From: Enterococcus phage vB_OCPT_CCS1
Sequence record: ON113170.1
DNA length: 64,000 nucleotides
Direction: 5' to 3' (one strand)
Every line of letters begins with the position of its first letter. The first letter of the stretch is position 1. The position numbers and the translations under genes were made by a program. Below, piece by piece: positions 5,331-56,126 of this stretch. The notes under the pieces were generated by a model. That model was given only the letters and a program-made list of their open reading frames with translations. It was not told the DNA's origin and made no database searches.

Positions 5331-8300
5331 GTGAGTAATTTTTTCAGAAACATACACCCACTCTTGCGAAGAAATAAACGTCCGGAGAAGTACGATGACA
5401 CGAATTTCGCTGTGTTAAATGCGTTGAATTATGAATTAACACAGGCAGAGCAAGAAACCATTGCTAGTAAAATACAATCCTCCTTAGAGTCTGCTACAGA
5501 TACGTACCTAGACACTTGGGGAGATTGGTTCGGGGTGTACCGTAAGGACGGTTGGGACGATGAGTACTATCGTGCACGTATCATACGGGAACTACTTCTT
5601 AAGCGTGGTACAATTCCTGCTATCATTGATGCACTAGTAGATTTTCTTAATGATAATGATGCAGTTGTTCAAATCTACGAACCATGGAGAAACATCTTCT
5701 ATACAAATAAATCTAAATTAAACGGTGATGACCACTTAATGGGTTATTACTACCGTTTTGCAATTATTGACATTTCAATTGACAGACCGTTTCCTCCTGA
5801 AATCGTAGAAATTATCAAGGCTTTCAAACCTGCGGGTGTTTTATTCTATCTAAGACTAGATACAAGCTTAGACAAGAATAAAACAACTGTAGAAAGTCCT
5901 TATGTATACTTAGACGTAACAAATAAAACAGAATTAGAGTTCCTTAACGGTTTGTATTATGACCTACGAGGTAACATTAACCTGTCTGACCAACGAACAC
6001 AAGTTGTGGGGAACAACATCTTCCACACAAATAACTCTAAGCTAAACGGAGAAGACGTGCTTGCAGGGGCGTTTAACCATGGACGAGGCTATATTCACTT
6101 AGCAAGTACCACATTGCTTGATTACACACCAAAAGCTACTGATTCTATGAGTAACTTAAAAACAACTCTAGGTGAAGCAGGCTCTGACATGTACAATCAA
6201 ACAAAAGAAAAAGACGGAAGAACAGCTTCTATTCAAGTACCTGCAACAAAAAATGTACACACCCTATACTCCAACAGTTTAGACTTTGGTGACTATGATT
6301 ATTCAACCGCACCAAACCTTTTGCCTACATTAGATTATTCTAAATTGAGTAAAAACGGCTCAGCTTTACAAACACCTTTACCATATATTAAAGACTATGG
6401 TGACTACTTTGTACTTGACTCTAATGACGCATCAGCGGTTGGAACGTCTAGAAACTGTTTTGTACCGTTTCTAACACGTTTAACTAAAGGTAAAACGTAT
6501 ACACTAAGCGTTAGTATGATGGTTGATGATGAGTTTGCGAACAATCAAGGTTATTATAATTCACCATTAAATTATACAATATCCACAACAAACCCAGCTA
6601 AATCAGATATAATAGCTAGTATATATTCGAGTGCTGATATGCGTAACCAATGGAAACGAGTGTCTAAAGTATTTACTGTACCAGCAAACCAAACAGACGG
6701 TGACTATGTATATTTACAACTATATCAAACCGCAGGTGTCAAAGGTAAATTATACATTCGTTATGATATGATGATTCAAGAAGGAGACCAAACCAGTTCT
6801 CAAGCACCAGCTAACCAAATGCCAAAAGTCGCAACTGATGATTATATGTTTTCACACCAGAATGTTACTAAGACTGAGGAAGATGGTAATATAACTAGTT
6901 TTAATAATTTACCAACTAGCGAACCTATTCGCAATATATACGTTAGGAACACAGAGGGTACTAAAAAACTAATTCCTTTGTTATCAGATAAAAAACAATA
7001 TACCATGAGCGTTGAAATGTGGTCTGAAAAAGAAGTAACACCAGTAATAAGATACCGTGTTAATGATAGTAATAACACACCCAAGTTCCCTTTAGAAATA
7101 GCTAATAAAAAAATACCAGCTAAACAATGGACTGAGGTGTCTGTTACGAACACGCTTGACTTACCAAGTAATCTCAATATGATTAAACCTGAGTCACAAA
7201 AACCAGTTACTAATAGTAACTATCTTATTAAAATCTATAACATTGAACCAATGGTAAAAGGCAAGAAGTATACCATCACATTGAAAGGTACAAAGCCAGA
7301 TACACAATCGTTTAGACCCTTCTTTACACGTGAAACTGGTACTCCGTGGGGTTTTGGTGATATGAAACTAGTTTCTGGTACTACAGACATTTATAGCGGA
7401 ACATTCACCGCTGCTGCAGATGCTCACCCAACTAGTCCGCAAGTTCAAATATATCAAGTACCAAATACTACAGTAGATGAGTGTACGATAGAATGGTTAA
7501 AACTAGAAGAAGGTGAAACTTATACACCTGACTACCCTCAACACTGGTTGCACATTGCTATTCCACAAGCATATGAAGGTACTATTAAAATCAAAAATGA
7601 TAGTATCAAAATCCAAGAGGGAGCAACAACAACAAAACCGGCTTGGAAACCTAATTTACTAGACGCTCCATATTATTTGAGTAAGGTGCCTTTGGGTGAG
7701 AATATTGCTAATAAAGATATTCAGTTTCCAATCAAAACCAGTGAATATCTTTCATATATCGCTAGAATGATAGAACCTTTTGTTGTAGGAGAAACTTATA
7801 CAATTACCATAAAAGCAACAAAACCAACCAGTCAAACGTTTATGGTTTATAACAGCGGTGTAGGGACTACTTATTACGGAAACCTAAAACCAGTTGAGGG
7901 ATTGACAGATGTATGGTCACTAACATTCACACCAACGAATGTTTCGTCAGTTAATCCTAGCGATTTACGTATATTTCAGTATCCATCATCAACAGTAGGC
8001 GCTGTTCAAATTGATTGGTTAAAAATCGAAAAAGGAGATACAAGAACTCCTAACATTGATTCCTACGACTATGTAGGCTCTCTGATAGAAGATACGGAAA
8101 CACCTACATTAGACCCGACTAAGTATACATGGACGGTAAATGGGGATGTAACAAATAAAAAGGCATATATGATATTTGACATTAAAACATTTATCGAAGA
8201 AAATTATGCTACAGAATTTGAAAAACTTGTTGCTGACCTAGGTGAAGACCAAGCGTTGAACGCTGTATTTGAAAATTTCAACATCTCTACAGCGCTTAAA

Positions 8301-8906
8301 GCTTTAGTGAGCCCAAGTTCACCAATTAATTTCTCAGTTGAGCTATACGACTTTTCTACAAGTGCATGGCACAAACTAAACACGGATAGTTTAGACCTAC
8401 GTATGCGTACGTTTAACTTAGTAGCGAATCGTATTACAGACTATTTAAACGACTACAAGCTGTTATTTGTTCGTTACGTTTTTGATAACGAAACAGATAA
8501 AGATGTGACAGTTGAACTAGACATGCTAAACGTACTATGCAATTATCGTTTAGGTGACGGGTACAGCGTTGGTTTACAGAGCAAAGTAGAAACATTAACA
8601 GATATACCGGCAAGTAATGTAAGTTTGTCAAAAGAATCATTAGTACTAGGGATAGGCGAATCAGAGGCAGTAACTGCAACTCTTTTACCTGCTAATACAA
8701 CTAATACTAATTTAGAATGGTTAATTCTAGACCCTAACATTGCTAAGGTATCCAGTTCGGGTAATATTACGGGGTTGTCCGAAGGGAAAACAAAACTTGT
8801 AGTTTACGGGGATGACCGAAACGTAAGTGCTGAGTGTGATGTAAAAGTCGTAATTAGACCTACAGCAATTGCACTAGACAAGGAAACAATAAATATCAAT
8901 ATCTAG
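5331..8906 (+). CDS. large baseplate/tail fibre protein with four ~100-aa carbohydrate-binding-like repeats and a C-terminal Ig-like (Big_2) domain
   Basis: 1191 aa. Internal repeats begin YTLSVSMMVDD, YTMSVEMWSEK, YTITLKGTKPD and YTITIKATKPT; the last two end in WLK[LI]E.G.T.TP. A second duplicated motif is IFYTNKSKLNGDD / IFHTNNSKLNGED. The C-terminal LVLGIGESEAVTATLLPANTTNTNLEW...GKTKLVV is Big_2-like. Confidence 0.55.
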   Translation: MSNFFRNIHPLLRRNKRPEKYDDTNFAVLNALNYELTQAEQETIASKIQSSLESATDTYLDTWGDWFGVYRKDGWDDEYYRARIIRELLLKRGTIPAIIDALVDFLNDNDAVVQIYEPWRNIFYTNKSKLNGDDHLMGYYYRFAIIDISIDRPFPPEIVEIIKAFKPAGVLFYLRLDTSLDKNKTTVESPYVYLDVTNKTELEFLNGLYYDLRGNINLSDQRTQVVGNNIFHTNNSKLNGEDVLAGAFNHGRGYIHLASTTLLDYTPKATDSMSNLKTTLGEAGSDMYNQTKEKDGRTASIQVPATKNVHTLYSNSLDFGDYDYSTAPNLLPTLDYSKLSKNGSALQTPLPYIKDYGDYFVLDSNDASAVGTSRNCFVPFLTRLTKGKTYTLSVSMMVDDEFANNQGYYNSPLNYTISTTNPAKSDIIASIYSSADMRNQWKRVSKVFTVPANQTDGDYVYLQLYQTAGVKGKLYIRYDMMIQEGDQTSSQAPANQMPKVATDDYMFSHQNVTKTEEDGNITSFNNLPTSEPIRNIYVRNTEGTKKLIPLLSDKKQYTMSVEMWSEKEVTPVIRYRVNDSNNTPKFPLEIANKKIPAKQWTEVSVTNTLDLPSNLNMIKPESQKPVTNSNYLIKIYNIEPMVKGKKYTITLKGTKPDTQSFRPFFTRETGTPWGFGDMKLVSGTTDIYSGTFTAAADAHPTSPQVQIYQVPNTTVDECTIEWLKLEEGETYTPDYPQHWLHIAIPQAYEGTIKIKNDSIKIQEGATTTKPAWKPNLLDAPYYLSKVPLGENIANKDIQFPIKTSEYLSYIARMIEPFVVGETYTITIKATKPTSQTFMVYNSGVGTTYYGNLKPVEGLTDVWSLTFTPTNVSSVNPSDLRIFQYPSSTVGAVQIDWLKIEKGDTRTPNIDSYDYVGSLIEDTETPTLDPTKYTWTVNGDVTNKKAYMIFDIKTFIEENYATEFEKLVADLGEDQALNAVFENFNISTALKALVSPSSPINFSVELYDFSTSAWHKLNTDSLDLRMRTFNLVANRITDYLNDYKLLFVRYVFDNETDKDVTVELDMLNVLCNYRLGDGYSVGLQSKVETLTDIPASNVSLSKESLVLGIGESEAVTATLLPANTTNTNLEWLILDPNIAKVSSSGNITGLSEGKTKLVVYGDDRNVSAECDVKVVIRPTAIALDKETININI

Positions 8907-8920
8907 ATAAGGAGTTACTC

Positions 8921-11455
8921 ATGATATATACAGCTTACGCAAATTCAGCCGATGGCACAAAAGACTTTACTAAAGTGAGACCTAAACCAAACCTGTATAA
9001 TTCCAGTCTCCTAAATTCTGACTCCTCTATTATTGTAGAGGAGACAGGGTTTAAGCTTTTGGGAGGTTGGGCTAAAACAGTAATCAACCATGCAAATCTT
9101 CGGAAAATTCTGAAAGTGGGGCATACGTATCATTTTTCCTATGACTTCGAATTACTAACCCTGCAAGAAGGGACTGTTCCATATGACCAACCTCAACATA
9201 CAACTCTGCTTTTATATAGTGAAAAAGATGTAAGAAATTATCCGGTAATTGTACTTACACAGTATAGTAATTCTGATAACCGTGAATTAATAAACAACCT
9301 AAGAGTAGGAGATATTGTACACCACACGAAATCGGTAACAATACCAGAATGTGTGGGGGATGTGTTTGCTGATTATCGTATTCTTGCTTATGGTAGACGA
9401 AGTATTAACCCAGACGGTACATTAAATCGTGTGGAAGACGGACGATTTATGAACATCAAAATCGAGGACTCTCAAACAGGAGAGACTGTTTACCTGCAAA
9501 ATGCTATTGATAATCTAGGCAAATCCTATATGCGTTATATTGGTACCTCAAACACTGATAGTAACAATCCTAGTGATTACACATGGAAATTAAACTTAGT
9601 AGGAGAAGCACGCCATACAATAACACCAGAAAATGCAACAGTGAAAGATGTAACTTATAGTGTAGCAGATAAATCAGTGGTTACCATTACACAGAATGAC
9701 GACCATACCGGCGTTTTACTATCTCCGGAAAGTTACGGGAAGACAATTCTAACAGCTAAAACTGTGGATAGCGGTAAAATTGCAAATTTAACGGTAAACA
9801 CCATAAAAACATTGAACCTAGACCATAGTAATCGTATTTCCTTATCACCGGTGGGAGATGCACACAAGATACTTACGGATATTAGAAACTCTGGTACAGT
9901 TAACTTACTAAAAGGTACAGGAGATGCTAGATACTCAAGAGTTTACTCAGTAAGGTCAAATAATTCATCGGTGTCCCCAATAACCTCTGAAGATATAGTT
10001 GAATCAGATACATTAGCCTATACCCGTGTCAGACGTGCAAAGCTAGAAGATGGTACATGGGGTTCTAAATCCTTTAGTCTATACATGGCAGGTGCACCTG
10101 TAGAGCAGTGGGCAACAGAAGACTTTATTGGAACAGGATATTGGTTCTCAGTTATGATACGAAGTAACATAGAACTAACAATATCTAAATCTAAAATGAG
10201 TGTTAGAGAATTTACAGGAGGTACCGATTACGGTAGAGCAGACACACTCGAAGACGTACCGTTAGAGGCAGATAAATGGAAAATGATTAAAGTATGGGTG
10301 CCAGAATCCGAGGAAAGTGCTAGATTAGCTACTAATATTCGGTTTATTCTATGGACACGCGATTTAACAGATACACAATTAGCTACTACATCATTAGACG
10401 TAAGCAGACCTATGGTATCTAAAGAAGAACCATACTATTGGTTACCTGCTCCGGAGGATGTTGGGGTACCTCACGGTCAACCAAATTTAGCTAATAATAC
10501 CTTTAAGGATTGGAAAAGCTACACATTTACTTATTGGAGACCTGATGACATGTTGCGTTCTATAAACCCCGTAGACTTAGGACTATCTGTTGGAGATGTA
10601 TTAACTGTTAAATCAGAGATTACGAATCCTGCGGACAGTAATGTAAAATTAGCCGTAGAAATTTCACAAATGCATGAGGGAGTACGTATTGCTGGAACAC
10701 CAAATGAAATCATCAGTGGTACTAGTGGAACTTCTGTTGCATCTCTTACAGTTAAAAACCTAGAAAACCCTATTAAAGTAGGAGAAATAGTAAAGAGTGA
10801 TTTAAGTACTACCGTAACTGGTGCGCAAGCTAGAAGATTAAAATTAATAAAGGGAGACGAAACCCTAATGGACTTCTGGACACCGAGTTTTGCTGATTTT
10901 AGCGCAGGTAAATATCTACTAAATCCTTATTTTGAAGTAGCACAGGAAAACTATTCTAAGTTAACTACAACTGCTGAACTTACCAATACTACTAAAATTA
11001 TTGGAACAAAAGCGGAAACACAAATAGTATTTGATACTGTTAATACGGTTCGTGACTACTTCCCTAGAGAGTTTTCAGGATTGACAACTAATGAGAGTAT
11101 ATTAGTTAAATTTGCAACCATTGTTAAAAGTATTAAAGTGGTTATCCCGTTCAAAGGGGTTTCCAGTACTCGAACGTACGCTGAACGAGGTATCATAAGC
11201 AATACAGGAGAATATAACGGAATAAGCACAAATGTAACTACAAATTTAGATAGTAGAGAACATGTGCTAACAAGTAATTATGCACCGTATATTCAACAAG
11301 ACATGACTATGAAATATTTTGTCTGCACAGATGCTACGAATGGGTTGGTGGCTAGCTCAGTTACAGTAGGTAAACCTGTTCAAACGGTTATTGTGCAACC
11401 AAGTGAAAATCCAAATGGTGAGGCTGTAGAAATTACAGTCTCCCCTAAAGTATAA
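8921..11455 (+). CDS. tail fibre / receptor-binding-like protein with Big_2 domain
   Basis: 844 aa. The ITPENATVKDVTYSVADKSVVTI...GKTILTAKTVDSGKIANLTVN segment is Big_2-like. Confidence 0.5.
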   Translation: MIYTAYANSADGTKDFTKVRPKPNLYNSSLLNSDSSIIVEETGFKLLGGWAKTVINHANLRKILKVGHTYHFSYDFELLTLQEGTVPYDQPQHTTLLLYSEKDVRNYPVIVLTQYSNSDNRELINNLRVGDIVHHTKSVTIPECVGDVFADYRILAYGRRSINPDGTLNRVEDGRFMNIKIEDSQTGETVYLQNAIDNLGKSYMRYIGTSNTDSNNPSDYTWKLNLVGEARHTITPENATVKDVTYSVADKSVVTITQNDDHTGVLLSPESYGKTILTAKTVDSGKIANLTVNTIKTLNLDHSNRISLSPVGDAHKILTDIRNSGTVNLLKGTGDARYSRVYSVRSNNSSVSPITSEDIVESDTLAYTRVRRAKLEDGTWGSKSFSLYMAGAPVEQWATEDFIGTGYWFSVMIRSNIELTISKSKMSVREFTGGTDYGRADTLEDVPLEADKWKMIKVWVPESEESARLATNIRFILWTRDLTDTQLATTSLDVSRPMVSKEEPYYWLPAPEDVGVPHGQPNLANNTFKDWKSYTFTYWRPDDMLRSINPVDLGLSVGDVLTVKSEITNPADSNVKLAVEISQMHEGVRIAGTPNEIISGTSGTSVASLTVKNLENPIKVGEIVKSDLSTTVTGAQARRLKLIKGDETLMDFWTPSFADFSAGKYLLNPYFEVAQENYSKLTTTAELTNTTKIIGTKAETQIVFDTVNTVRDYFPREFSGLTTNESILVKFATIVKSIKVVIPFKGVSSTRTYAERGIISNTGEYNGISTNVTTNLDSREHVLTSNYAPYIQQDMTMKYFVCTDATNGLVASSVTVGKPVQTVIVQPSENPNGEAVEITVSPKV

Positions 11456-26264: not shown

Positions 26265-27320
26265 ATGTTCTCAGACCTTCTAACAAATGAACTAGGCATA
26301 CCAAAAGACATTGAACACGAATTGCGATATAACTGTCCGTTCTGTGAACCAAATCATGACTATAAATTATACGTCAAGGTTAGTGATGATAATACGAATG
26401 GATTGTGGATTTGTTTTAAGTGTGGTCGTAAAGGTAACCCTATATCGTTTGTAATGGAATACTTTGGTGTCTCTTTTGAAGAAGCATTAGAGATTCTAGA
26501 GGGTTATGGTTACAGATTCCAGAATAAGAACTACATTCCAAAAGATGATTCATTAACGGATGAAGAGTACTTATTGTTACTACTTGATACTGTAGGGAAA
26601 CCTAAGACGGTAGAAGAGGAGGAAGAAGAAAACCTCACGCCCCCTCCTTTACCACAAGGATTCCAACTATTATCACAAAATCTCTACAATCCAGAAGCAT
26701 ACCCATTTTTAGTTTATTGTCATAAACGAGGTTTTACTTTAAATGACATTATCCGACACAATATTGGGTATGTACTAGATAGCACAGTCAATCTTCCATC
26801 AGGAAGACAGATTAGGTTAAAGAACCATTTAGTATTCCTTACACATGGTGACGATGGACAGTATCAGTATTGGAATACACGTGCGATTGCTGATAGCTAT
26901 ATAAAGTCTTTTAATGCACCTAGTAAGGATGGAGAGTACTCCAAGAAGAATACTATATTCAATCTTAACATTGCGTGTAAAACTCCACAAGTAGTAATTA
27001 CTGAGGGGGTTCCTGATGCACTAACTTTAGGAGAATCTGGTGTAGGTACATTTGGTAAACAGGTTACAGATGCGCAGATTAATTTAATACTTAAGAGTGT
27101 TACTCCTGAGCAACCAATTTATGTGTACCTAGACAAGGATGCAAAGAATGAGATAAAAAAACTTGCAGAGCGTTTGTATGAACGACATAAAGAAACTTAT
27201 ATTGTTATAAGTCCTACAGACAAAGACCCGAATAGTATTGGTAAAGAGAGTGCTTGGGAAATTATTAAGAACCATTCTGTAAGAGCAGATGGCGTAGGTA
27301 TAATTAAATTGATGTTATAG
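26265..27320 (+). CDS. DNA primase (zinc-binding + TOPRIM)
   Basis: CPFCEPNHDYKLYV...CFKCGRKGN zinc ribbon. TOPRIM ITEGVPDALT...YLDKD. Confidence 0.75.
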   Translation: MFSDLLTNELGIPKDIEHELRYNCPFCEPNHDYKLYVKVSDDNTNGLWICFKCGRKGNPISFVMEYFGVSFEEALEILEGYGYRFQNKNYIPKDDSLTDEEYLLLLLDTVGKPKTVEEEEEENLTPPPLPQGFQLLSQNLYNPEAYPFLVYCHKRGFTLNDIIRHNIGYVLDSTVNLPSGRQIRLKNHLVFLTHGDDGQYQYWNTRAIADSYIKSFNAPSKDGEYSKKNTIFNLNIACKTPQVVITEGVPDALTLGESGVGTFGKQVTDAQINLILKSVTPEQPIYVYLDKDAKNEIKKLAERLYERHKETYIVISPTDKDPNSIGKESAWEIIKNHSVRADGVGIIKLML

Positions 27321-27329
27321 GAGGTACGT

Positions 27330-27992
27330 ATGGAGACAATTAAATATGAAGTACATTGGGTACACCATCAATTAGACGAAGACAAAACTCATGGTGTTTT
27401 TGATACATTGGAAGAAGCTATTCAGTCCGTATACGATTGGTGGAATCAGCATGATTATGAACCACCATATGTGCGTATGTGGACAAAAGACGGTGTAACT
27501 ACATTGGACTATGGCTTCCATTACATGTTTTACAAAATAAAAGAGATAAAGGAGACTAATGAATTGAATCCAGTAGTTAAGTTTACTAAGAGTGAGGGAG
27601 CCATTGCTCCAAAACGAGGACGAGAAGCTGATGTAGCACATGACTTGTTTACAGATAAGGATGCTGTAATTGTACCGGGAAGGCTAGGAGCAACAGTAGT
27701 TACTACAGGAATTAGAACAGCTTTTGACCCTAATTTGTATGGTCTGTTTATCAACCCACGTGGGGGCATGATGAAGTACCCATTAACTCTAGGTAACACA
27801 CAAGGTGTTGTTGAAGGAGAATACCGTGGGGATGTCGGACTTCCTCTTAAGAATACTTTCTCTTTACAATTCGGAGAATATACTAACGCTACTCATGTTT
27901 TAGTTATTACCGAAGACGGTAAGCTTGTAGGGAAACCAGTTAAAGAAGTACGTGAAAGCTATCCAGAATTTGATAAGCTTTATGAAGAATAA
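27330..27992 (+). CDS. dut: dUTPase, N-terminal 220 codons (motifs I-III) ending at an in-frame TAA
   Basis: AHDLF (motif I), INPRGG (II), GVVEGEYRGDVG (III). Preceded by a ~90-aa N-terminal extension. Confidence 0.7.
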   Translation: METIKYEVHWVHHQLDEDKTHGVFDTLEEAIQSVYDWWNQHDYEPPYVRMWTKDGVTTLDYGFHYMFYKIKEIKETNELNPVVKFTKSEGAIAPKRGREADVAHDLFTDKDAVIVPGRLGATVVTTGIRTAFDPNLYGLFINPRGGMMKYPLTLGNTQGVVEGEYRGDVGLPLKNTFSLQFGEYTNATHVLVITEDGKLVGKPVKEVRESYPEFDKLYEE

Positions 27993-28211
27993 CTAACTAA
28001 ATTAGGTAATGAGCTGGATTTAATCTATGGCAATATGTTTACTGGTGTTTCTGAAACCTATGTTGTTGCAGGAACTATCTTTATTCCAAAGGGTACTCGT
28101 TTATGCCAAGCATTCTTGCTTCCACGTTACGCTACTAATTTTGTTGAAGTAGACGAATTAGATGAAACAGAACGTGGTGAAGGTGCATACGGTTCGTCTG
28201 GTGTTAAATAA
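27993..28211 (+). other. dut: in-frame continuation of the dUTPase reading frame encoding motifs IV-V, with no start codon of its own
   Basis: Same frame as the 27330 ORF. Translates to ...IFIPKGTRLCQAFLLPRYATNFVEVDELDETERGEGAYGSSGVK*, which matches the E. coli Dut C-terminus pattern (RIAQ...RGEGGFGHSG). Confidence 0.7.
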
Positions 28212-28447
28212 TGGCTAGCCGTATCCCAGATTTAAAGATGCCACTTCTTTATCTTGTAGGAAATGCTTCTATTGGTACTCGTGAGCGTGGCTGTGATGTA
28301 ACAGTTACCTTACGAGACTTTTATGTAGACACCCCTGATGACAAGTTAGAACAACTAATAACTTTGACATACAAAGAAGACAAAATTGAAAATTTTACAC
28401 GAATTAGTGCAGATAAATGTTCATTTCGTGTTATACTAGGAGAGTAG
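28211..28447 (+). CDS. hypothetical protein (78 aa)
   Basis: Start overlaps the end of the dUTPase frame (TAATG). Confidence 0.45.
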   Translation: MASRIPDLKMPLLYLVGNASIGTRERGCDVTVTLRDFYVDTPDDKLEQLITLTYKEDKIENFTRISADKCSFRVILGE

Positions 28448-32969: not shown

Positions 32970-33809
32970 TTGAAAATACTGTTCTTACAAGATTATATCA
33001 GAGAGACCCATGTACATAACAGTCAGAATGGACAATATGTAGACTATAAACGTACTGACATGGGTAAAAAGCTTACAAGTTTACTTAACGACATAGGTCT
33101 AACAGGTCGTGATTACATGATTGACTACGACTATGACCTAATTCCTGAACCACAGAAGGTAAATACTAAAACAGGTAAAGTTATTAAATACAAGGAGCCT
33201 GTATTAAAACTCCGGAAAGAACCTGAAAAACGTCTATTAAAACGATTAATGAAAACAAAACCAGACATCATTATTCCTATGGGAGGAATGGGATGTAAGA
33301 ACTTATTGAATAGTACTTCTATTACGAAAGCACGTGGTGTTCCTGTACAAAAAACAATCACTGATGAAGAAACAGGAGAGTTTTTTGATACATGGATTCT
33401 ACCAATGTTTAGTATGGAATACCTGTCAATGAATCCTAATATTGAGAACTTGGTTAAAGCAGACATTTCTACTTTATCTCGTTTTATTGCAGAGGGCGCA
33501 CAAGCATTCGAGCCAAAGAAAGTCGAATATGAGCTTGTTATGACAATTGAACGAGTGAAACAAATCTTTGAGTTCTTGTCTCGGTTTAAACCTCTTACTG
33601 CATGGGACTTGGAAACAAACAGTCTACGTGGAGATGTATTGGGTGCGAAACCACTAGTTATGTCTCTTAGTTGGGAAGAGGGACAAGGTGTTACGATTCC
33701 CTTAGAACATCATGAATCCCCTTGGAATGAAGAAGATTTAGCTATTGTATACAATCATTTACAAGCTTTTGTAGCTGATGCACAGCAACCAAAGGTAGGA
33801 CACAACATT
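32970..33809 (+). CDS. DNA polymerase (family A) exon 1: N-terminal domain plus 3'-5' exonuclease motifs Exo I and the start of Exo II
   Basis: TTG start after GGGGGAAGAGAGC. Exo I AWDLETNSL. Ends ...KVGHNI immediately before an in-frame stop, i.e. midway through Exo II. Confidence 0.7.
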
Positions 33810-34540
33810 TAACAACATGGGTGTTGTAAAATCCCTCTCATATCGGTGAACGCTAAGGGAGAAATCCTATGCCAATACCGAGCCTACATTAACGGTGACG
33901 TTAGATGGGGTGTAGAGACTGAGCCGAGTCCTTGCAGGACAAGGTGAGAAGTGGTGTATCATGACAGAAAGGTTGTGATACTATGAAGAAATGTAAAGTA
34001 TGCGGAAAAGAAAAGGATTTAGACCAATACTACACATATAAAAAATATGGCAAAACCTATATCAATGGTAAGTGCAAAGTGTGTACTCTAGCTCAAAACA
34101 AGAAATATAGAGATACTACTGGTTATGACAGAGCACGTTACCAAAAAGATAAGGAAAAAATTAGACAACTACAAAGAGAGTACAGTAAAACAGAGGAAGG
34201 GCGTAAAGCTCGACTAGAAGCTTCAAGACGTTATCGAGAATCAGAACACGGTAAACTTAAGCAGAAAGCACGAGCAGTAGTTAACCATGCAATTAGAGAT
34301 GGTAAGCTAATTAAGCCAGAAACCTGTATGGATTGTGGTAGAAGCACTCAGTTAGAGGCACACCATAAAGATTACAACAAGCCCTTAGATGTAGATTGGA
34401 TTTGTAAAAATTGTCATGAAAATAGACACCACTTAAATGAGGGAAGTACATCTGAGTAGGTACCTGCAAGCAAACCTACTGAATTACCACAGGTGTACTA
34501 AGGTATAGTCCACTCCTTTAGGAAACTAGAGGGTACAGTG
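33810..34540 (+). mobile_element. group I intron interrupting the DNA polymerase gene
   Basis: Exon 1 ACAACATT pairs with the intron guide sequence GGTGTTGT (33820-33827), with a U-G wobble at the 5' splice site. The intron ends in G at 34540. Splicing joins GHNI+QFDIRFL, restoring Exo II. CTTGCAGG (33935) pairs with CCTGCAAG (34465), bracketing the HNH ORF. Confidence 0.6.
33983..34459 (+). CDS. intron-encoded HNH homing endonuclease
   Basis: CKVCGKEKDLD...CKVCTL zinc finger and HNH core CMDCGRSTQLEAHHKDYNKPLDVDWICKNCHENRHH. Confidence 0.7.
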   Translation: MKKCKVCGKEKDLDQYYTYKKYGKTYINGKCKVCTLAQNKKYRDTTGYDRARYQKDKEKIRQLQREYSKTEEGRKARLEASRRYRESEHGKLKQKARAVVNHAIRDGKLIKPETCMDCGRSTQLEAHHKDYNKPLDVDWICKNCHENRHHLNEGSTSE

Positions 34541-36727
34541 CAATTTGATATTCGTTTCTTAATGAACACAAAAGGGTTTGCTTATTTTGAGAATAACCGT
34601 GATACATTGATTGGGTACTACTTAATCGTAGCACAGAAAATTGAAAGCTCTAAACGTTTGTCAGACCTTGCTTATGAATTAACTGATATGGGCGGTTATG
34701 ATAACCCGTTAGAAGACTATAAGAAGAAATACAAGGAAGACTACATTGCTCGTAAGAAAGCTGAAATTGATGAGTTAAAAGCTTCTGAGAAAGCACGTGT
34801 AGAGAAGGAATACAAACTAGCACAGGCTAAATACAAAGAAGAAGTGGCAAAAGCTAAGAAATTAGGTAAGTCTACTAAATCAATTTTGAAACCTGTAAAA
34901 GAAAAAGTAGTTGTTCCTTCTAAGACAGAAGTTAAAACTGTGAATGAAATTGATGGAGGGGACTTTAACTATGATTGGATTCCATTAGAAATTATGCACC
35001 CATACGCAAGTGGAGATACAGATTGTTGCTTACGTATTTATAACGTACTATACCAACGAATTGCTCCTCATGAAAAGATTCTAGCTCTTTGGACAGACTT
35101 CTATCCTAAACTTACACGGACACTTGCTCATCTAGAAGCAGAAGGTATCTTCGTTGATAAAGAATATGCGAAAGTTCTTGAAAAGGTATATGCAGAAGAG
35201 GAAGAACGTCTTATTGAAGAACTACGTAAGTTCCCCGCTGTTAAAGAGTTAGAAGCAGAGCACATGGCACTCTATAAAGCAGGTCTAGAAGAATGGAAGA
35301 AACCCAAGTCAGAACGAGACGAAGAGGTTGCTAAACTTCGTGATAAATATAAGATTTCTGATAAGGAAAACAAAGTTAAGTTCAATCCCGGCTCTGCTGT
35401 CCATAAAGGAAAAGTTCTTTATAAGATTCTTGGTCTAACATTACCTTATGACAAAGAGTCCATTAAAGAAAAACCTTTTGATAATGGTGTTCCTGAAAAT
35501 GAATTAACTTGGGAAGACTACAAGACAGATAAACATGCTTTGGGCTATATCGCAGAGCACAATGAAGATGCAAAAGAATTAGCAGAAATGCTACTGGAAT
35601 ACTCTAAAGTAAACACCTTGAAGAACAACTTTGCTCAGAAACTTCCGTTACTAGCTTCAAACAAAGATGGAAAAGTACATGGTTCGTTCAAGATTACTGG
35701 TACAGAAACAAGCCGTTTATCTTCTAAAGAACCTAATATGCAACAAGTACCATCTAAAGTTGGAGACCCTAAACGTTTTGACTATACGTACCCAATTAAG
35801 CGTATGTTTAAAACAAGCTTTGAAAACGGAGCTTTATTACAGCTCGACTACTCAGCCCTAGAAATGCGTATTCTAGCTTTAGTAGCCGGAGACGAAGCTA
35901 TGACCCAAGCTTTCTTAGATGGAGAGGACTTACACAAATCAACCGCTTCTATTGTTTGGAAAGTACCTGTATCAGAAGTATCTAAGGATATGCGTAAGAA
36001 TGCTAAGAGTGTTAACTTTGGTATTGCTTATGGGGAAACACCTTTCTCTATTGCTCCTAAATTAGGTGTAACACCCGAGGAAGCTGAACGTATTTTTGAA
36101 GACTACTTTGCAAATAAACCACGTATTAAATCCTTTATTGATGAAACACATGAGTTTGTTAAAGAAAACGGATATGTAGATACCTTACAAGGACATCGTA
36201 GATTAATTCGTGATGCGTTCTCTAAAGACCGTAACACATTCAATGGCGCTTTACGTAAATCAGTAAACACAATCATTCAAGGAACTGGTGCATATTTAAC
36301 AAACATGTCTCTGGTGTATATTGACGATTATCTAAGAACTAAAGGTATGAAGTCTCGTATTGCTATTACAGTACATGACTCCATTGTAATTGATTGTCCT
36401 CGTGAAGAAGTAGACGAAGTAGCAAAAGTAGCTTGTTTTATCATGGAAAACCTACCGATTGATTTCTTAACAATTAATTGGAAAGGGGAACAAATGCGAT
36501 TTCCTATTGTAGCCGATGTAGAAATCGGGGAAAACTACAATGACATGGTAGACTATGATGCAGACGAAGTGAACAAATTTGCTTCTTATAAAGGATATGT
36601 TAAGTATTACAAAGACCAAGCTAAATTTGAGGACTATAAGAACGCAGGTATGATTAGTGAGGAACAAATGGAAGTCGGTATTAATGCAGTTAAGGCTTCT
36701 ATAGAACAGTACAAACTAATTGTGTAA
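34541..36727 (+). CDS. DNA polymerase (family A) exon 2: rest of the exonuclease domain plus polymerase domain
   Basis: Begins QFDIRFL (Exo II). Pol motif A LLQLDYSALEMRILAL, motif B KSVNFGIAYG, motif C VHDSIVIDC. Confidence 0.8.
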   Translation, partial: QFDIRFLMNTKGFAYFENNRDTLIGYYLIVAQKIESSKRLSDLAYELTDMGGYDNPLEDYKKKYKEDYIARKKAEIDELKASEKARVEKEYKLAQAKYKEEVAKAKKLGKSTKSILKPVKEKVVVPSKTEVKTVNEIDGGDFNYDWIPLEIMHPYASGDTDCCLRIYNVLYQRIAPHEKILALWTDFYPKLTRTLAHLEAEGIFVDKEYAKVLEKVYAEEEERLIEELRKFPAVKELEAEHMALYKAGLEEWKKPKSERDEEVAKLRDKYKISDKENKVKFNPGSAVHKGKVLYKILGLTLPYDKESIKEKPFDNGVPENELTWEDYKTDKHALGYIAEHNEDAKELAEMLLEYSKVNTLKNNFAQKLPLLASNKDGKVHGSFKITGTETSRLSSKEPNMQQVPSKVGDPKRFDYTYPIKRMFKTSFENGALLQLDYSALEMRILALVAGDEAMTQAFLDGEDLHKSTASIVWKVPVSEVSKDMRKNAKSVNFGIAYGETPFSIAPKLGVTPEEAERIFEDYFANKPRIKSFIDETHEFVKENGYVDTLQGHRRLIRDAFSKDRNTFNGALRKSVNTIIQGTGAYLTNMSLVYIDDYLRTKGMKSRIAITVHDSIVIDCPREEVDEVAKVACFIMENLPIDFLTINWKGEQMRFPIVADVEIGENYNDMVDYDADEVNKFASYKGYVKYYKDQAKFEDYKNAGMISEEQMEVGINAVKASIEQYKLIV

Positions 36728-42742: not shown

Positions 42743-43183
42743 ATGGCTAAAGAAATTGCAAATATTGCAGACCTATTAAAACCAAGCGTAGGTGCTGTTG
42801 AATTGGATGGTAAATATCTTGTAGTATCTACCCTATCAGATGGGTATACAGGTACAGTACAAGGTGCTTACGCTTATGAAGTGAAGAAATCAGGAACAGA
42901 TTACAAAGTGAGTGAACTTATCTATGATAAAGGCAAGAACAAGTTTACTCCTGCGGATGCTCCAATTATCATGACAGATGACGATACAATTTTCTTCGTT
43001 ACTCGTACGTTGATTGACCCTTATAATTACCCAGTAATTAGTGAAGCTACAGTTAAGGCTCACGAAATTAAAGAAAAACAAGTACTTCAAGCGTTTATTG
43101 CCTTTGCAGAAGACAGATTCAAACTAGGAGTATACAACGTATTCTTAGCAGACGACCCTTACATTCTACAAGACAAAGCATAA
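42743..43183 (+). CDS. paralog of the N-terminal domain of the preceding gene (146 aa)
   Basis: YLVVSTLSDGYTGTVQGAYAYEV...DPYNYPVISE...YNVFLADDP aligns with the upstream protein. Confidence 0.5.
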   Translation: MAKEIANIADLLKPSVGAVELDGKYLVVSTLSDGYTGTVQGAYAYEVKKSGTDYKVSELIYDKGKNKFTPADAPIIMTDDDTIFFVTRTLIDPYNYPVISEATVKAHEIKEKQVLQAFIAFAEDRFKLGVYNVFLADDPYILQDKA

Positions 43184-43205
43184 GAAGGAATCGGCGGATA
43201 ATAAA

Positions 43206-50397: not shown

Positions 50398-51246
50398 ATG
50401 GATTTAAAACAAGCTTACAACTATGCAGTAGAACATTTAAATGAAAATGTAACAACCGAAAGTGAACGTATTTACGTATTGGCTGTTTTCCAACTAGGAA
50501 GCCGATATGCAGGATACGATGTTGAATCAAGTGATTACGATTTTACAGTCGTTTACATGCCGTCTGCTTATGATTTATTAAACCGTGAGTATGGACGTAG
50601 CAAAATTAAGTTTGAACATAATGATTATGAAGTGGAAATGTCTTTCATGGATATTCGCAAATATGTGAACCGCTTGCTGTCAAGTGCGTTAGAAACCCTA
50701 CAAATGGTGTTTGCACCAGCTAGCATGAGCTACTATGCTAAATTTGGAGACGATAACTTATCATTACGAGCAGAAGAACTTGTAGGTTTTATGCTAAAAT
50801 TACGAGACAATCGTAAATCCTTTGTCTACTTGAACACAGATAAGCTATATGATTCAATTTCAGGAAGAGCAAAGTCTTCTATGGGTAATGCTAGCATTAG
50901 TTACACAAATGATGAATATGGTCGAACAATTAAGTATGCGATTGGTGTTGAATACATGCAAGACCTACTTCAAGCATTATACTACAATGAAGACATTCGA
51001 GAAGGTTTAACTGTTTCACCTATGCAAGCCCCTGTTTATAAGGAACATCGAAACAATCCTAGCTATGAAATTGCTCGTTTGTATCATTCTCGTGCTGTTA
51101 ACCTTATTGAGAAAATGGTTTTAAACAAAGAAGTGGTTCGTGAAACTTTACGAAAATTACAGCCGACCGCAGGTATGATTAGAGCAGTAAGAGAAGTATG
51201 GACAGAAGAGTTTGTAAACATTATCTTGGGAGGTTATGACGACTAA
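50398..51246 (+). CDS. Pol-beta-superfamily nucleotidyltransferase
   Basis: Signature hGS-x10-DhDh: VFQLGSRYAGYDVESSDYDFTVVY. Confidence 0.55.
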   Translation: MDLKQAYNYAVEHLNENVTTESERIYVLAVFQLGSRYAGYDVESSDYDFTVVYMPSAYDLLNREYGRSKIKFEHNDYEVEMSFMDIRKYVNRLLSSALETLQMVFAPASMSYYAKFGDDNLSLRAEELVGFMLKLRDNRKSFVYLNTDKLYDSISGRAKSSMGNASISYTNDEYGRTIKYAIGVEYMQDLLQALYYNEDIREGLTVSPMQAPVYKEHRNNPSYEIARLYHSRAVNLIEKMVLNKEVVRETLRKLQPTAGMIRAVREVWTEEFVNIILGGYDD

Positions 51247-52973
51247 TGATGGCAACAGCAGTGAAAGAAAGAACATTAGATGAAATCTTAACCAATCCTA
51301 AGAAACCAATGACAGAGAAACTGGTTGAAGCTGAACAGCTAATTAAGAGCAGTGAACATGTTTACGACTTTGGGTTAGGTACAATTAAAGAAACTATGGT
51401 GATGTCTGGCAAAAACTGGTTAGCTAGTCACTTATATATCAAAGAAGTTACTACTTACGGGTTTATCTTGCAAGCCGTTGTATACAAACAGTCCTTAGTT
51501 GAGCAGGCTATTACTAACGATGAAGGTGAAGAAATAAAACCTGCTTCTTATGACTATGAGCTAAACCGTGTCTATGAGTTAGAATACAGTCTACGAGATA
51601 AGTATACTAGACTGCTTAAAAATGGTAGTCCCTTGAAATTCTCAGAGAACAACATCAAAAACATGTTTTCAGGTCAAGAAGGTGTTATTCAAAAACTAGA
51701 TTCATGCTGTAACACTGAGATGTACTCTTCTATGTATGACGTGTTTAGTTGTATTGGAAATGAATCAGTACCCCAAGTAGCTCGCTTTCTTGTTAGATTT
51801 ATGCAATTGAACGTGGTTGAATTAATCTATAAAAGTGGGGTTCCTGTTCCTTTTGCTAAAGGCTTTGCTAGAGACCAAGCTAGGAAACTTGAGAAAGGTG
51901 GCAATTGGTATGCTAGCCCAGAGCCTAATGCTAACTGGGTAGATTGTACAGCTACTGCACCTGCAAAGGTTCTTGACATTCCAAAGTCCTTATTTAAGAT
52001 TATCTGTCAAGGTGATATTAGCTTCAATGAATATGTTTCAATGCACAGAGCTATAGAAAGAGCTGAAAGTGTGGGTTTTGAAAAGGAACCTCGTAAGGAA
52101 TGGAACAGGGAACTACGAATGTATATTAAACCCGAAGAAGACGAAGCTATTGTACAAAAAAGGGAGAAGTACAATGAGAAATGTCTAAAACGAAATAAAC
52201 AAGGAATCATTCGAGCTTGCGGTGCACTGTATCATTTGTTTACCTTTGCTGTGGAACTAGATAATGAATATGGAATTAAAAAAGCAAGTAATTTAGCTTC
52301 TCATGAGTTTGAAGACATGTTATCTAGGGAAGTAAAGCCTAACTGTGTAAACAATCTACAAAATAACTCAGCAGTTTGTATTGCCTTTTCTCTAGGATTG
52401 GAATTGAACCGTGTTGCTAGATACATGTATTATCAGTTACATGTGGAGCAGGGATTTACTAATGGATATTATAATGCAACTTACCGTGACTACCTGCGTA
52501 TGATGCGACAACTAGAAATTGCAGATAAAGGTAATTATCCTAAATCATTGAAAACAGTGCATGATGTAGCTGAAATGAATACCAGAATGATTGAGGACAA
52601 AGAACTAGCAGATAACTTTGCGGAACAAACTAAGCATTACCGAGAGTGGGAAGACGTTAAAGTTCGAGGTAGTAAGTACATTATGCGTGCACCTGAGAGT
52701 ATAGACGACCTTGCCAAAGAAGGTTCTAGTCTAAGCCACTGTGTATTCAGTTATGCTCGTTCAGTAGCCCTAGGAGAAACTACGATTATGTTCTTACGTA
52801 CTAAAGCTTCTCCAGATGATAGCTTGGTTACAGTTGAGATTAAGTACAGCCCTAGTCGAGAATGCTATAGAATTGTGCAAGCTCGTGGGCATTCCAACCG
52901 ACCATTAACGACTGCGGAAAACGAGTTTTTAGAGAAATGGTGCAAAAAATCGGGAAATGTGGAGAGAAAATAG
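51246..52973 (+). CDS. large protein with C-terminal Cys/His-containing domain (PcfJ-like by recollection), translationally coupled to the nucleotidyltransferase
   Basis: TAATG overlap with the upstream gene. C-terminus SSLSHCVFSYARSVALGETTIMFLR...ECYRIVQARGHSNRP. Confidence 0.4.
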   Translation: MMATAVKERTLDEILTNPKKPMTEKLVEAEQLIKSSEHVYDFGLGTIKETMVMSGKNWLASHLYIKEVTTYGFILQAVVYKQSLVEQAITNDEGEEIKPASYDYELNRVYELEYSLRDKYTRLLKNGSPLKFSENNIKNMFSGQEGVIQKLDSCCNTEMYSSMYDVFSCIGNESVPQVARFLVRFMQLNVVELIYKSGVPVPFAKGFARDQARKLEKGGNWYASPEPNANWVDCTATAPAKVLDIPKSLFKIICQGDISFNEYVSMHRAIERAESVGFEKEPRKEWNRELRMYIKPEEDEAIVQKREKYNEKCLKRNKQGIIRACGALYHLFTFAVELDNEYGIKKASNLASHEFEDMLSREVKPNCVNNLQNNSAVCIAFSLGLELNRVARYMYYQLHVEQGFTNGYYNATYRDYLRMMRQLEIADKGNYPKSLKTVHDVAEMNTRMIEDKELADNFAEQTKHYREWEDVKVRGSKYIMRAPESIDDLAKEGSSLSHCVFSYARSVALGETTIMFLRTKASPDDSLVTVEIKYSPSRECYRIVQARGHSNRPLTTAENEFLEKWCKKSGNVERK

Positions 52974-53100
52974 GCTATTTTAAAATGAAAAAATACTACT
53001 AGTTAGTTTGTGTTCTTAAGTTAGCTAAAACGAGTTATTTCAAATAACAATTTTCTACCTACAAATGTTTCATATATAATTCACAGAAAAAACACAAAAA

Positions 53101-53127
53101 ACCCTACAGTTATGTGGGGTTTTCTTG
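53101..53127 (+). terminator. rho-independent terminator (stem with one G-U pair)
   Basis: ACCCTACAGTTATGTGGGGT followed by TTTCTTG. Confidence 0.5.
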
Positions 53128-53250
53128 CGTTTCATTTATATCTGAAATTTAACAGTTATGTGTGCTATATTAACAGTAGAACCTAAGAAGGGCGGGCTTT
53201 ATCCGTGTTCTTAGAATATAGACATGTTGAAGGAGTTTGTATTTGAAATG

Positions 53251-55226: not shown

Positions 55227-55907
55227 ATGGAGAAAACTTATAAAATGCCTAATTACATGTTAACCATGTTTAATGAATACCTAGAAAAAAATGAAAGACC
55301 TTCTTTAGAAGATTTTTTAAAGAAGTACCCCAAGTATAAAGAATATGCGTATCTCATTAGTAATTACACTACTAATGGAGATGATTTATTAGCTTTAGCC
55401 GGAAAGGCACTTATTGATAATGACTCTATTCAGGGATACAGAACAGAGTTTGATGCAATTATTGGTCGTATGCGTAATATTAACAATATGTTGGAAAATG
55501 TAGCGTTAGGTGTGGTGGATAAAGTCAGCTTTTTTAGGCGCTCAAGAGTAGTTACCCCACAATTTGAACTTGACCTAGACATAGAGCAGAAAAAGGACGA
55601 AGCGATAGTTTTCTGGACAAGCTGTACGTGTAAAAAGTTTTTTGCGGGTTACCCAGAACAATATCAGTGGGGCAATGGGTACGTAAATGTAAGTCTCTAT
55701 GCAAAAAGAGGTAACATAACGTTTACTAATTTAACTATGGAGACTCTATGTCGTCTTTTTTGTGAAAAAGATGGAGACCAAGAAATCCAAGAGGGAGTAG
55801 AGCGCATATTGTTAAGACCAGAGTTTGTTGCCTCGGTTGAAGAATTTAGCAATAAGTTGTATGCAAGTTCAAGAAAACAAAACCCAATGGATATTTTAAT
55901 CAAGTAA
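55227..55907 (+). CDS. early protein, paralog B (226 aa)
   Basis: Tandem paralog of the 54509 gene with an identical RBS context (AAAGGAGAGATAATCATGG). Confidence 0.5.
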   Translation: MEKTYKMPNYMLTMFNEYLEKNERPSLEDFLKKYPKYKEYAYLISNYTTNGDDLLALAGKALIDNDSIQGYRTEFDAIIGRMRNINNMLENVALGVVDKVSFFRRSRVVTPQFELDLDIEQKKDEAIVFWTSCTCKKFFAGYPEQYQWGNGYVNVSLYAKRGNITFTNLTMETLCRLFCEKDGDQEIQEGVERILLRPEFVASVEEFSNKLYASSRKQNPMDILIK

Positions 55908-55920
55908 AGGAGAGATAATC

Positions 55921-56055
55921 ATGAAAGACATGAAAGACTTTAAACATAGAGACGATATTGATTCTGATATTTTTGCCCTACTTCTCAAACTTACTAATAT
56001 CAGTACGAGTTTGTTTCCGGGAAGTATTCTAATAAGTACTTCACACGAAAAGTAG
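55921..56055 (+). CDS. small 44-aa ORF behind a third copy of the shared RBS
   Basis: GTAAAGGAGAGATAATCATG, identical to the RBS of the 55227 gene. Not in the ORF track (<60 aa). Confidence 0.35.
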   Translation: MKDMKDFKHRDDIDSDIFALLLKLTNISTSLFPGSILISTSHEK

Positions 56056-56126
56056 TTGACAGTACTAGTACAAGATGTTAACATGTTTATGTACAAGAAA
56101 ACAAATCAAGGAGAGATGTACAGATG
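56056..56126 (+). repeat. 71-bp promoter/operator/RBS cassette, copy 1
   Basis: TTGACA-GTACTAGTAC palindrome-TAACAT...AAGGAGAGATGTACAGATG. Identical to 56424-56494. Confidence 0.7.

Follow-up and report, generated by a model that had tools for sequence, protein, structure and literature searches.

A premature ochre codon divides the dUTPase reading frame of Enterococcus phage vB_OCPT_CCS1

The dUTPase frame and its neighbours

The window, a stretch of 64,000 nucleotides from Enterococcus phage vB_OCPT_CCS1 (ON113170.1), contains a dUTPase reading frame that runs for 220 codons from the ATG at 27330, is closed by an in-frame TAA, and stays open beyond this codon for another 72 codons before the native stop (Table 1). 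A preliminary description, made from the letters alone, had placed motifs I–III of the enzyme upstream of the TAA and motifs IV–V downstream in the same frame, and the sequence matches this layout. It had further held that the downstream piece is served by neither a start codon nor a ribosome-binding site of its own. This also holds, as the sole Met of the piece, which begins 42 nt past the premature TAA, gives a product of 58 aa, and a search 5–13 nt upstream of this ATG found no Shine-Dalgarno-like sequence. Furthermore, the Met encoded at 28035 is replaced by Ile in many relatives.

Table 1. Features of the interrupted dUTPase gene in the vB_OCPT_CCS1 window
Feature	Position	Strand	Description
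Shine-Dalgarno sequence GGAGG	27320..27324	+	5 nt upstream of the dUTPase ATG; a ribosome-binding site is annotated at the equivalent site in phage 113
Truncated dUTPase ORF	27330..27992	+	220 aa and premature TAA; covers the N-terminal extension, motifs I–III and the insertion up to its 44th residue
N-terminal extension domain, aa 1–90	27330..27599	+	outside the dUTPase fold; PHROG 1174, E = 1.7e-17; model pLDDT 83–95
dUTPase core with motifs I–III, aa 91–176	27600..27857	+	Pfam PF00692 positions 3–83; under strong purifying selection among relatives
Lineage-specific insertion between motifs III and IV, aa 177–248	27858..28073	+	gap in Pfam and PDB alignments; contains the stop
Premature ochre codon TAA	27990..27992	+	CAA (Gln221) to TAA by a C-to-T transition at 27990
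Orphaned dUTPase 3' part	27993..28211	+	72 codons (27993–28208) and native stop TAA (28209–28211); end of the insertion, motif IV, motif V
58-aa ORF	28035..28211	+	from the sole in-frame ATG downstream of the premature TAA; without Shine-Dalgarno sequence

Both sides of the interruption are recognized as dUTPase. When the frame is joined across the TAA, it matches the trimeric dUTPase family Pfam PF00692 over motifs I–V with 41.6 bits against a cut-off of 22, residues 91–176 aligning to profile positions 3–83 and the downstream piece to positions 87–129. Each half alone reaches an E-value of approximately 9e-5, and the joined frame reaches 1.3e-10. Simultaneously, the dUTPase family PHROG 135 is matched by the upstream piece (E = 6e-34) and by the downstream piece (E = 2e-17), and solved dUTPases in the PDB match both halves with E-values down to 4e-15. 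Because PF00692 and PHROG 135 match both pieces, the homology is not a chance resemblance. All five motifs lie in one polypeptide in every relative, and in vB_OCPT_CCS1 they are separated by the TAA at codon 221.

On its 5' side the gene adjoins a primase gene (26265–27320), which is 85% identical to that of phage 163, the closest relative, compared with 99.8% for the adjoining dUTPase; judged from these sequence identities, a sharp recombination mosaic boundary is located just upstream of dut. Directly 3' of dut lies a 78-aa ORF (28211–28447), whose ATG overlaps the dut stop by one base. Several relatives name this ORF 'dUTPase' or 'trimeric dUTP diphosphatase' via PHROG 17092. Pfam gives no match for it, nor does it significantly resemble any solved dUTPase, and the name looks like a mis-annotation that has been propagated. 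In EfsSzw-1 (L003, 1758–2477), a 720-nt ORF annotated as a DNA methylase is situated between dut and the 78-aa ORF.

Elsewhere in the window, the DNA polymerase I gene is found in two pieces within 32970–36727. The first piece (32970–33809) gives a sub-threshold match to a 3'–5' exonuclease, the second (34538–36724) matches DNA_pol_A with E = 1e-89, and a 158-aa ORF without a Pfam match (33983–34456) lies between them. The split looks like an intron or a mobile insertion, as in other Herelleviridae polymerases, and no Rfam intron model reaches threshold at the split gene. Three stretches (6317–8921, 51246–53248, and 55907–56124) have little or no match in phage 163; among them are a portion of a 3.6-kb structural gene and another gene with an identity of only 66%. 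In addition, the phage 163 gene at L013 24235–24978 is missing from the window.

Domain layout and structural model

Three parts can be distinguished in the conceptual full-length protein. The preliminary description had recognized an N-terminal extension of about 90 aa, with which the Pfam coordinates agree, the family match starting at residue 91. The extension belongs to PHROG 1174, a 76-position family of unknown function, and against Pfam it yields a single match that lies below threshold. Among distant homologues, the extension is missing from P0027, P0031, and P0034, and in P0032 and P0033 the N-terminus is a different one. The extension is followed by the core with motifs I–III, and the core is in turn separated from motif IV by an insertion of about 72 aa (residues 177–248), close to the earlier estimate of about 75, which contains the stop as had been described. 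The insertion is in-frame coding in every homologue, but both its sequence and its length vary.

An AlphaFold2 model was made of P0002, a full-length homologue that is 97% identical, and has a mean pLDDT of 85.7. In this model, residues 1–75 form a separate compact domain of strands and helices, followed by the dUTPase barrel. The insertion contributes two strands (residues 189–193 and 199–203) paired as a hairpin, and two helices (residues 204–210 and 214–229). Behind it come the core strands of motif IV (residues 250–252 and 257–265), and then a flexible C-terminal arm with motif V. Foldseek assigns the jelly-roll fold of the dUTPases to the P0002 model with probability 1.00 to many solved dUTPases, at target TM-scores of 0.77–0.83. 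Residue 221 sits in the middle of helix 214–229 of the surface insertion.

In trimeric dUTPases, motifs IV and V take part in binding the substrate and in catalysis, and the C-terminal segment reaches across to adjacent subunits. In vB_OCPT_CCS1, translation would stop in the middle of the insertion helix, and the product would be without the two core β-strands of motif IV and without the motif V arm. Because these elements are lost, the 220-aa product is expected, from the model and from what is generally known of motifs IV and V, to be catalytically inactive, and on the model it is probably unable to form the trimer.

The closest structural matches are the trimeric dUTPases of staphylococcal phages 80alpha and phi11 (PDB 3zez and 4gv8), whose extra segment, the 'motif VI' insert, likewise separates motif III from motif IV. 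The 80alpha enzyme (3zez) aligns to residues 87–176 and 247–292 of the query, and about 28 of its residues fall between these two blocks. This alignment gap bears out the earlier remark that staphylococcal phage Dut proteins have an insertion at the same site. The two kinds of enzyme also differ. The insertion of vB_OCPT_CCS1 is about 72 aa long, as against about 28 residues in 80alpha, and no sequence similarity between the two was seen; furthermore, the staphylococcal proteins do not have the 90-aa N-terminal domain of the vB_OCPT_CCS1 protein.

The interrupted codon among related phages

The locus matches 30 records, all of them Enterococcus phages of the genus Schiekvirus (Herelleviridae, Brockvirinae), at 86–97% identity, and the best GenBank identity in the phage collection searched is 96–97% over 1.6–24 kb. 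The Bacillus myoviruses that had been guessed as relatives are thus replaced by Schiekvirus phages of Enterococcus. When the dUTPase gene was extracted from 24 distinct GenBank Schiekvirus genomes, it proved to be a single uninterrupted CDS in all 24, with a length of 882 nt, which is that of 27330–28211, in every genome except EFP01. The preliminary description had proposed a check of whether the TAA is a sense codon in related phages, and it is: codon 221 is CAA or CAG (Gln) in 23 of the 24, and the 24th, EFP01, has a longer and different insertion within an uninterrupted ORF of 921 nt. The equivalent codon is also CAA or CAG in two metagenome and two IMG/VR contigs. For instance, in phage 163 (CAD0300095.1), iF6 (gp124), and EFDG1 (AJP61466.1), the gene occupies the same place, between the DNA primase gene and the 78-aa ORF, and encodes one 293-aa protein with CAA or CAG at codon 221, where vB_OCPT_CCS1 has TAA.

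At the protein level, a search of a collection of 5.8 billion proteins yielded 34 clusters of the long-type dUTPase. All of them, the most distant at 47% identity, run without a break over the site and through motifs IV–V, and the shorter clusters (216–244 aa) owe their length only to a shorter N-terminus or to the end of a contig. In all homologues the downstream motifs are therefore part of one continuous ORF and not, as had been considered, of a separately initiated gene. A look-up of the exact 220-aa product found no record. For the TAA allele, a looser pattern matched the two metagenome and two IMG/VR contigs, all with CAA or CAG, and nothing in the genome collection.

Phage 163 provides the most direct comparison. 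Its dUTPase gene differs from that of vB_OCPT_CCS1 at two bases, a synonymous one at 27407 and position 27990, where phage 163 has C and vB_OCPT_CCS1 has T. The 219 nt after the premature stop are identical in the two phages, and at all 292 other residues the conceptual full-length product agrees with the phage 163 protein. With the sense codon of the other relatives, the two differences, and the 219 identical nucleotides, the stop is a private CAA-to-TAA transition without downstream decay.

Selection acts unevenly along the gene. Among relatives, the motif I–III core has accumulated 702 synonymous versus 41 non-synonymous differences (a ratio of 0.06), and the motif IV–V segment, within the same ORF, has accumulated 252 versus 54, which indicates purifying selection there as well. 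The insertion shows 432 synonymous versus 258 non-synonymous differences. This is where the gene evolves fast and is mosaic, with a ratio of non-synonymous to synonymous counts of 0.60 overall and 0.96 at residues 222–248. In EFP01 (L005, 831–1751), P0022, P0027, and P0031, a different and longer insertion is found in an otherwise near-identical protein.

Origin and consequences of the stop codon

Three explanations had been offered for the interruption: programmed readthrough or recoding, a recent nonsense mutation, and a sequencing error. The sense codon of the relatives supports the latter two and speaks against the first. In phage genes with programmed readthrough or recoding, as in vB_OCPT_CCS1, the frame stays open past an in-frame stop and encodes the homologous remainder of the protein, but in such genes the stop is conserved. 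Here the TAA is a Gln codon, or part of an uninterrupted ORF in EFP01, in the 24 GenBank relatives, and it is absent from the four environmental contigs and the 34 protein clusters as well. Furthermore, no stimulatory structure was detected in the RNA at 27985–28084, where the folding z-score is +0.62 and 146 of 200 shuffled sequences fold at least as well, and a search of the whole window gave no Rfam family above threshold. A bypass by frameshifting was rejected, as both alternative frames hit stops within a few codons of the site. On these comparisons, the stop can with high confidence be regarded as a private single-base change and not as programmed recoding.

A natural split into two genes was likewise rejected, there being no Shine-Dalgarno sequence for the downstream part, no conservation of its Met, and no split relative. 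A working enzyme might nevertheless be obtained from the interrupted gene, either by ochre suppression, for example through a UUA-anticodon derivative of a phage tRNA-Gln encoded outside the window, or context-dependent readthrough, or by reinitiation at ATG 28035, whereby the 58-aa fragment would complement the 220-aa fragment across the surface insertion. The position of the break is favourable to the two-piece route, since on the model it falls in the surface insertion and not in the core, which would be the likeliest site for split-protein reassembly, and an in-frame ATG is available close behind the stop. For the suppression route, phage 163 carries a tRNA-Gln(UUG) that is one anticodon base away from an ochre suppressor inserting the original Gln. 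However, none of the 21 tRNAs of phage 163 reads UAA, and the window contains no tRNA genes, the tRNA cluster of vB_OCPT_CCS1 lying outside it. Both release factors recognize UAA, which bacteria read through at a very low basal rate. No Shine-Dalgarno sequence precedes the reinitiation codon, whose Met many relatives replace by Ile. The stop is conserved in none of the relatives, and nothing has evolved here for recoding; no stimulatory RNA structure or Rfam element follows it, and the other frames are closed. The intact downstream frame, which would also suit a working enzyme, is explained by recency, given the zero differences from phage 163. Continued function by either route is therefore considered very unlikely.

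Even further from the evidence is the idea that the insertion of about 72 aa is a small self-splicing intron or intervening sequence, so that the stop never reaches the ribosome. Introns are frequent in Herelleviridae genomes, the polymerase gene of the same window is split by an intervening ORF, and the stop lies inside a segment missing from minimal dUTPases. Against these points, the Rfam search found no match in the window, and the segment is open and in-frame in every homologue, including those of 44–65% identity with different insertion sequences and lengths. It carries more synonymous than non-synonymous differences (432 versus 258), and it is confidently modelled as a folded hairpin and helices (pLDDT 85–95). 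Splicing thus seems almost out of the question.

The most probable rival is an error of sequencing, assembly, or consensus polishing, in which case the phage itself would carry CAA at 27990 and the stop would exist only in the deposited sequence. An error would reconcile the data simply, as a single base is concerned, in a gene otherwise protein-identical to that of phage 163 and intact in all relatives, and the allele is found nowhere else. Moreover, every other member of the genus has retained an intact dut, so its loss should cost something and a real knock-out is slightly surprising. The quality of the record argues in the opposite direction. When 63 phage 163 genes (46.7 kb) were compared end to end with the window, no frameshifts or indels were found, and the 917 substitutions in these CDSs comprise 692 synonymous and 221 non-synonymous changes, a ratio of approximately 3:1 that is the mark of real evolution. 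General poor sequence quality was rejected on both counts. Nonsense is expected for about 5% of random substitutions in the 63 genes, that is, about 47, and selection has removed essentially all but Q221*. The real stop gains number two, dut Q221* and a GAA-to-TAA change at 43181. The latter (43181–43183) trims the last residue of a 147-aa protein (42743–43186). Two further flags, at 26619 and 55665, arose because codons with several substitutions were scored one step at a time, and are no real stops. The clean frames and the synonymous excess imply that real substitutions far outnumber plausible errors, which favours a genuine mutation, and modern consensus assemblies seldom contain isolated substitution errors. 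An error is accordingly judged unlikely, though it carries appreciable weight, and Q221* is considered a real mutation of the phage with a probability of about 0.6, at odds of roughly 2:1.

The gene is an ordinary one-piece Schiekvirus dUTPase of 293 aa, composed of an extra N-terminal domain, the trimeric core, and a surface insertion of about 72 aa. Under the preferred reading, a genuine nonsense mutation, a single C-to-T transition at 27990 changed Gln221 (CAA) to an ochre stop (TAA) in vB_OCPT_CCS1 alone. The allele would then represent a very recent loss of function, a young pseudogene or knock-out. The 3' remnant would not be expressed to a useful level, and its intact look would merely reflect that it has had no time to decay. 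Simultaneously, we infer that the phage tolerates the loss of dut. A precedent exists in staphylococcal phage 80alpha, whose dut gene readily acquires nonsense and frameshift alleles under SaPIbov1 selection, and phages with these alleles are viable (PMC4619825).

A selective cause for such a mutation can also be imagined. If the Dut of these phages, through features such as its rapidly changing insertion and additional N-terminal domain, were sensed by an Enterococcus element, such as the repressor of a phage-inducible island or a defence system, Q221* could be a selected escape mutation instead of neutral decay, the knock-out evading the element. An Stl-like partner of this dUTPase is not known, and the proposal, which is made by analogy, is a highly speculative one. 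Its model is again 80alpha, whose dut nonsense and frameshift mutants evade SaPIbov1 (PMC4619825).

For annotation, where the value of the observation mainly lies, both fragments should be entered as a single disrupted dUTPase gene (pseudo), neither recoded nor split. The gene is already known as the annotated Schiekvirus dUTPase, of which vB_OCPT_CCS1 carries a probable null allele. In the tRNA cluster of phage 163, outside the window, ARAGORN predicts a tmRNA-like gene (L030, 41813–42160, minus strand) with the tag AKNEELLAVA*, for which the record has no annotation. The biological importance of the interrupted dUTPase is small. Meanwhile, the gene family is of modest interest in itself, combining a variable insertion of about 72 aa at the site of the staphylococcal Dut signalling segment with an N-terminal domain of unknown function. 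Those who use vB_OCPT_CCS1, for example in a therapeutic cocktail, should note that the phage is probably without a dUTPase of its own. If the allele is real, vB_OCPT_CCS1 would be a natural dut-null Schiekvirus, and its comparison with phage 163 or iF6 would gauge the contribution of dUTPase to these phages in Enterococcus.
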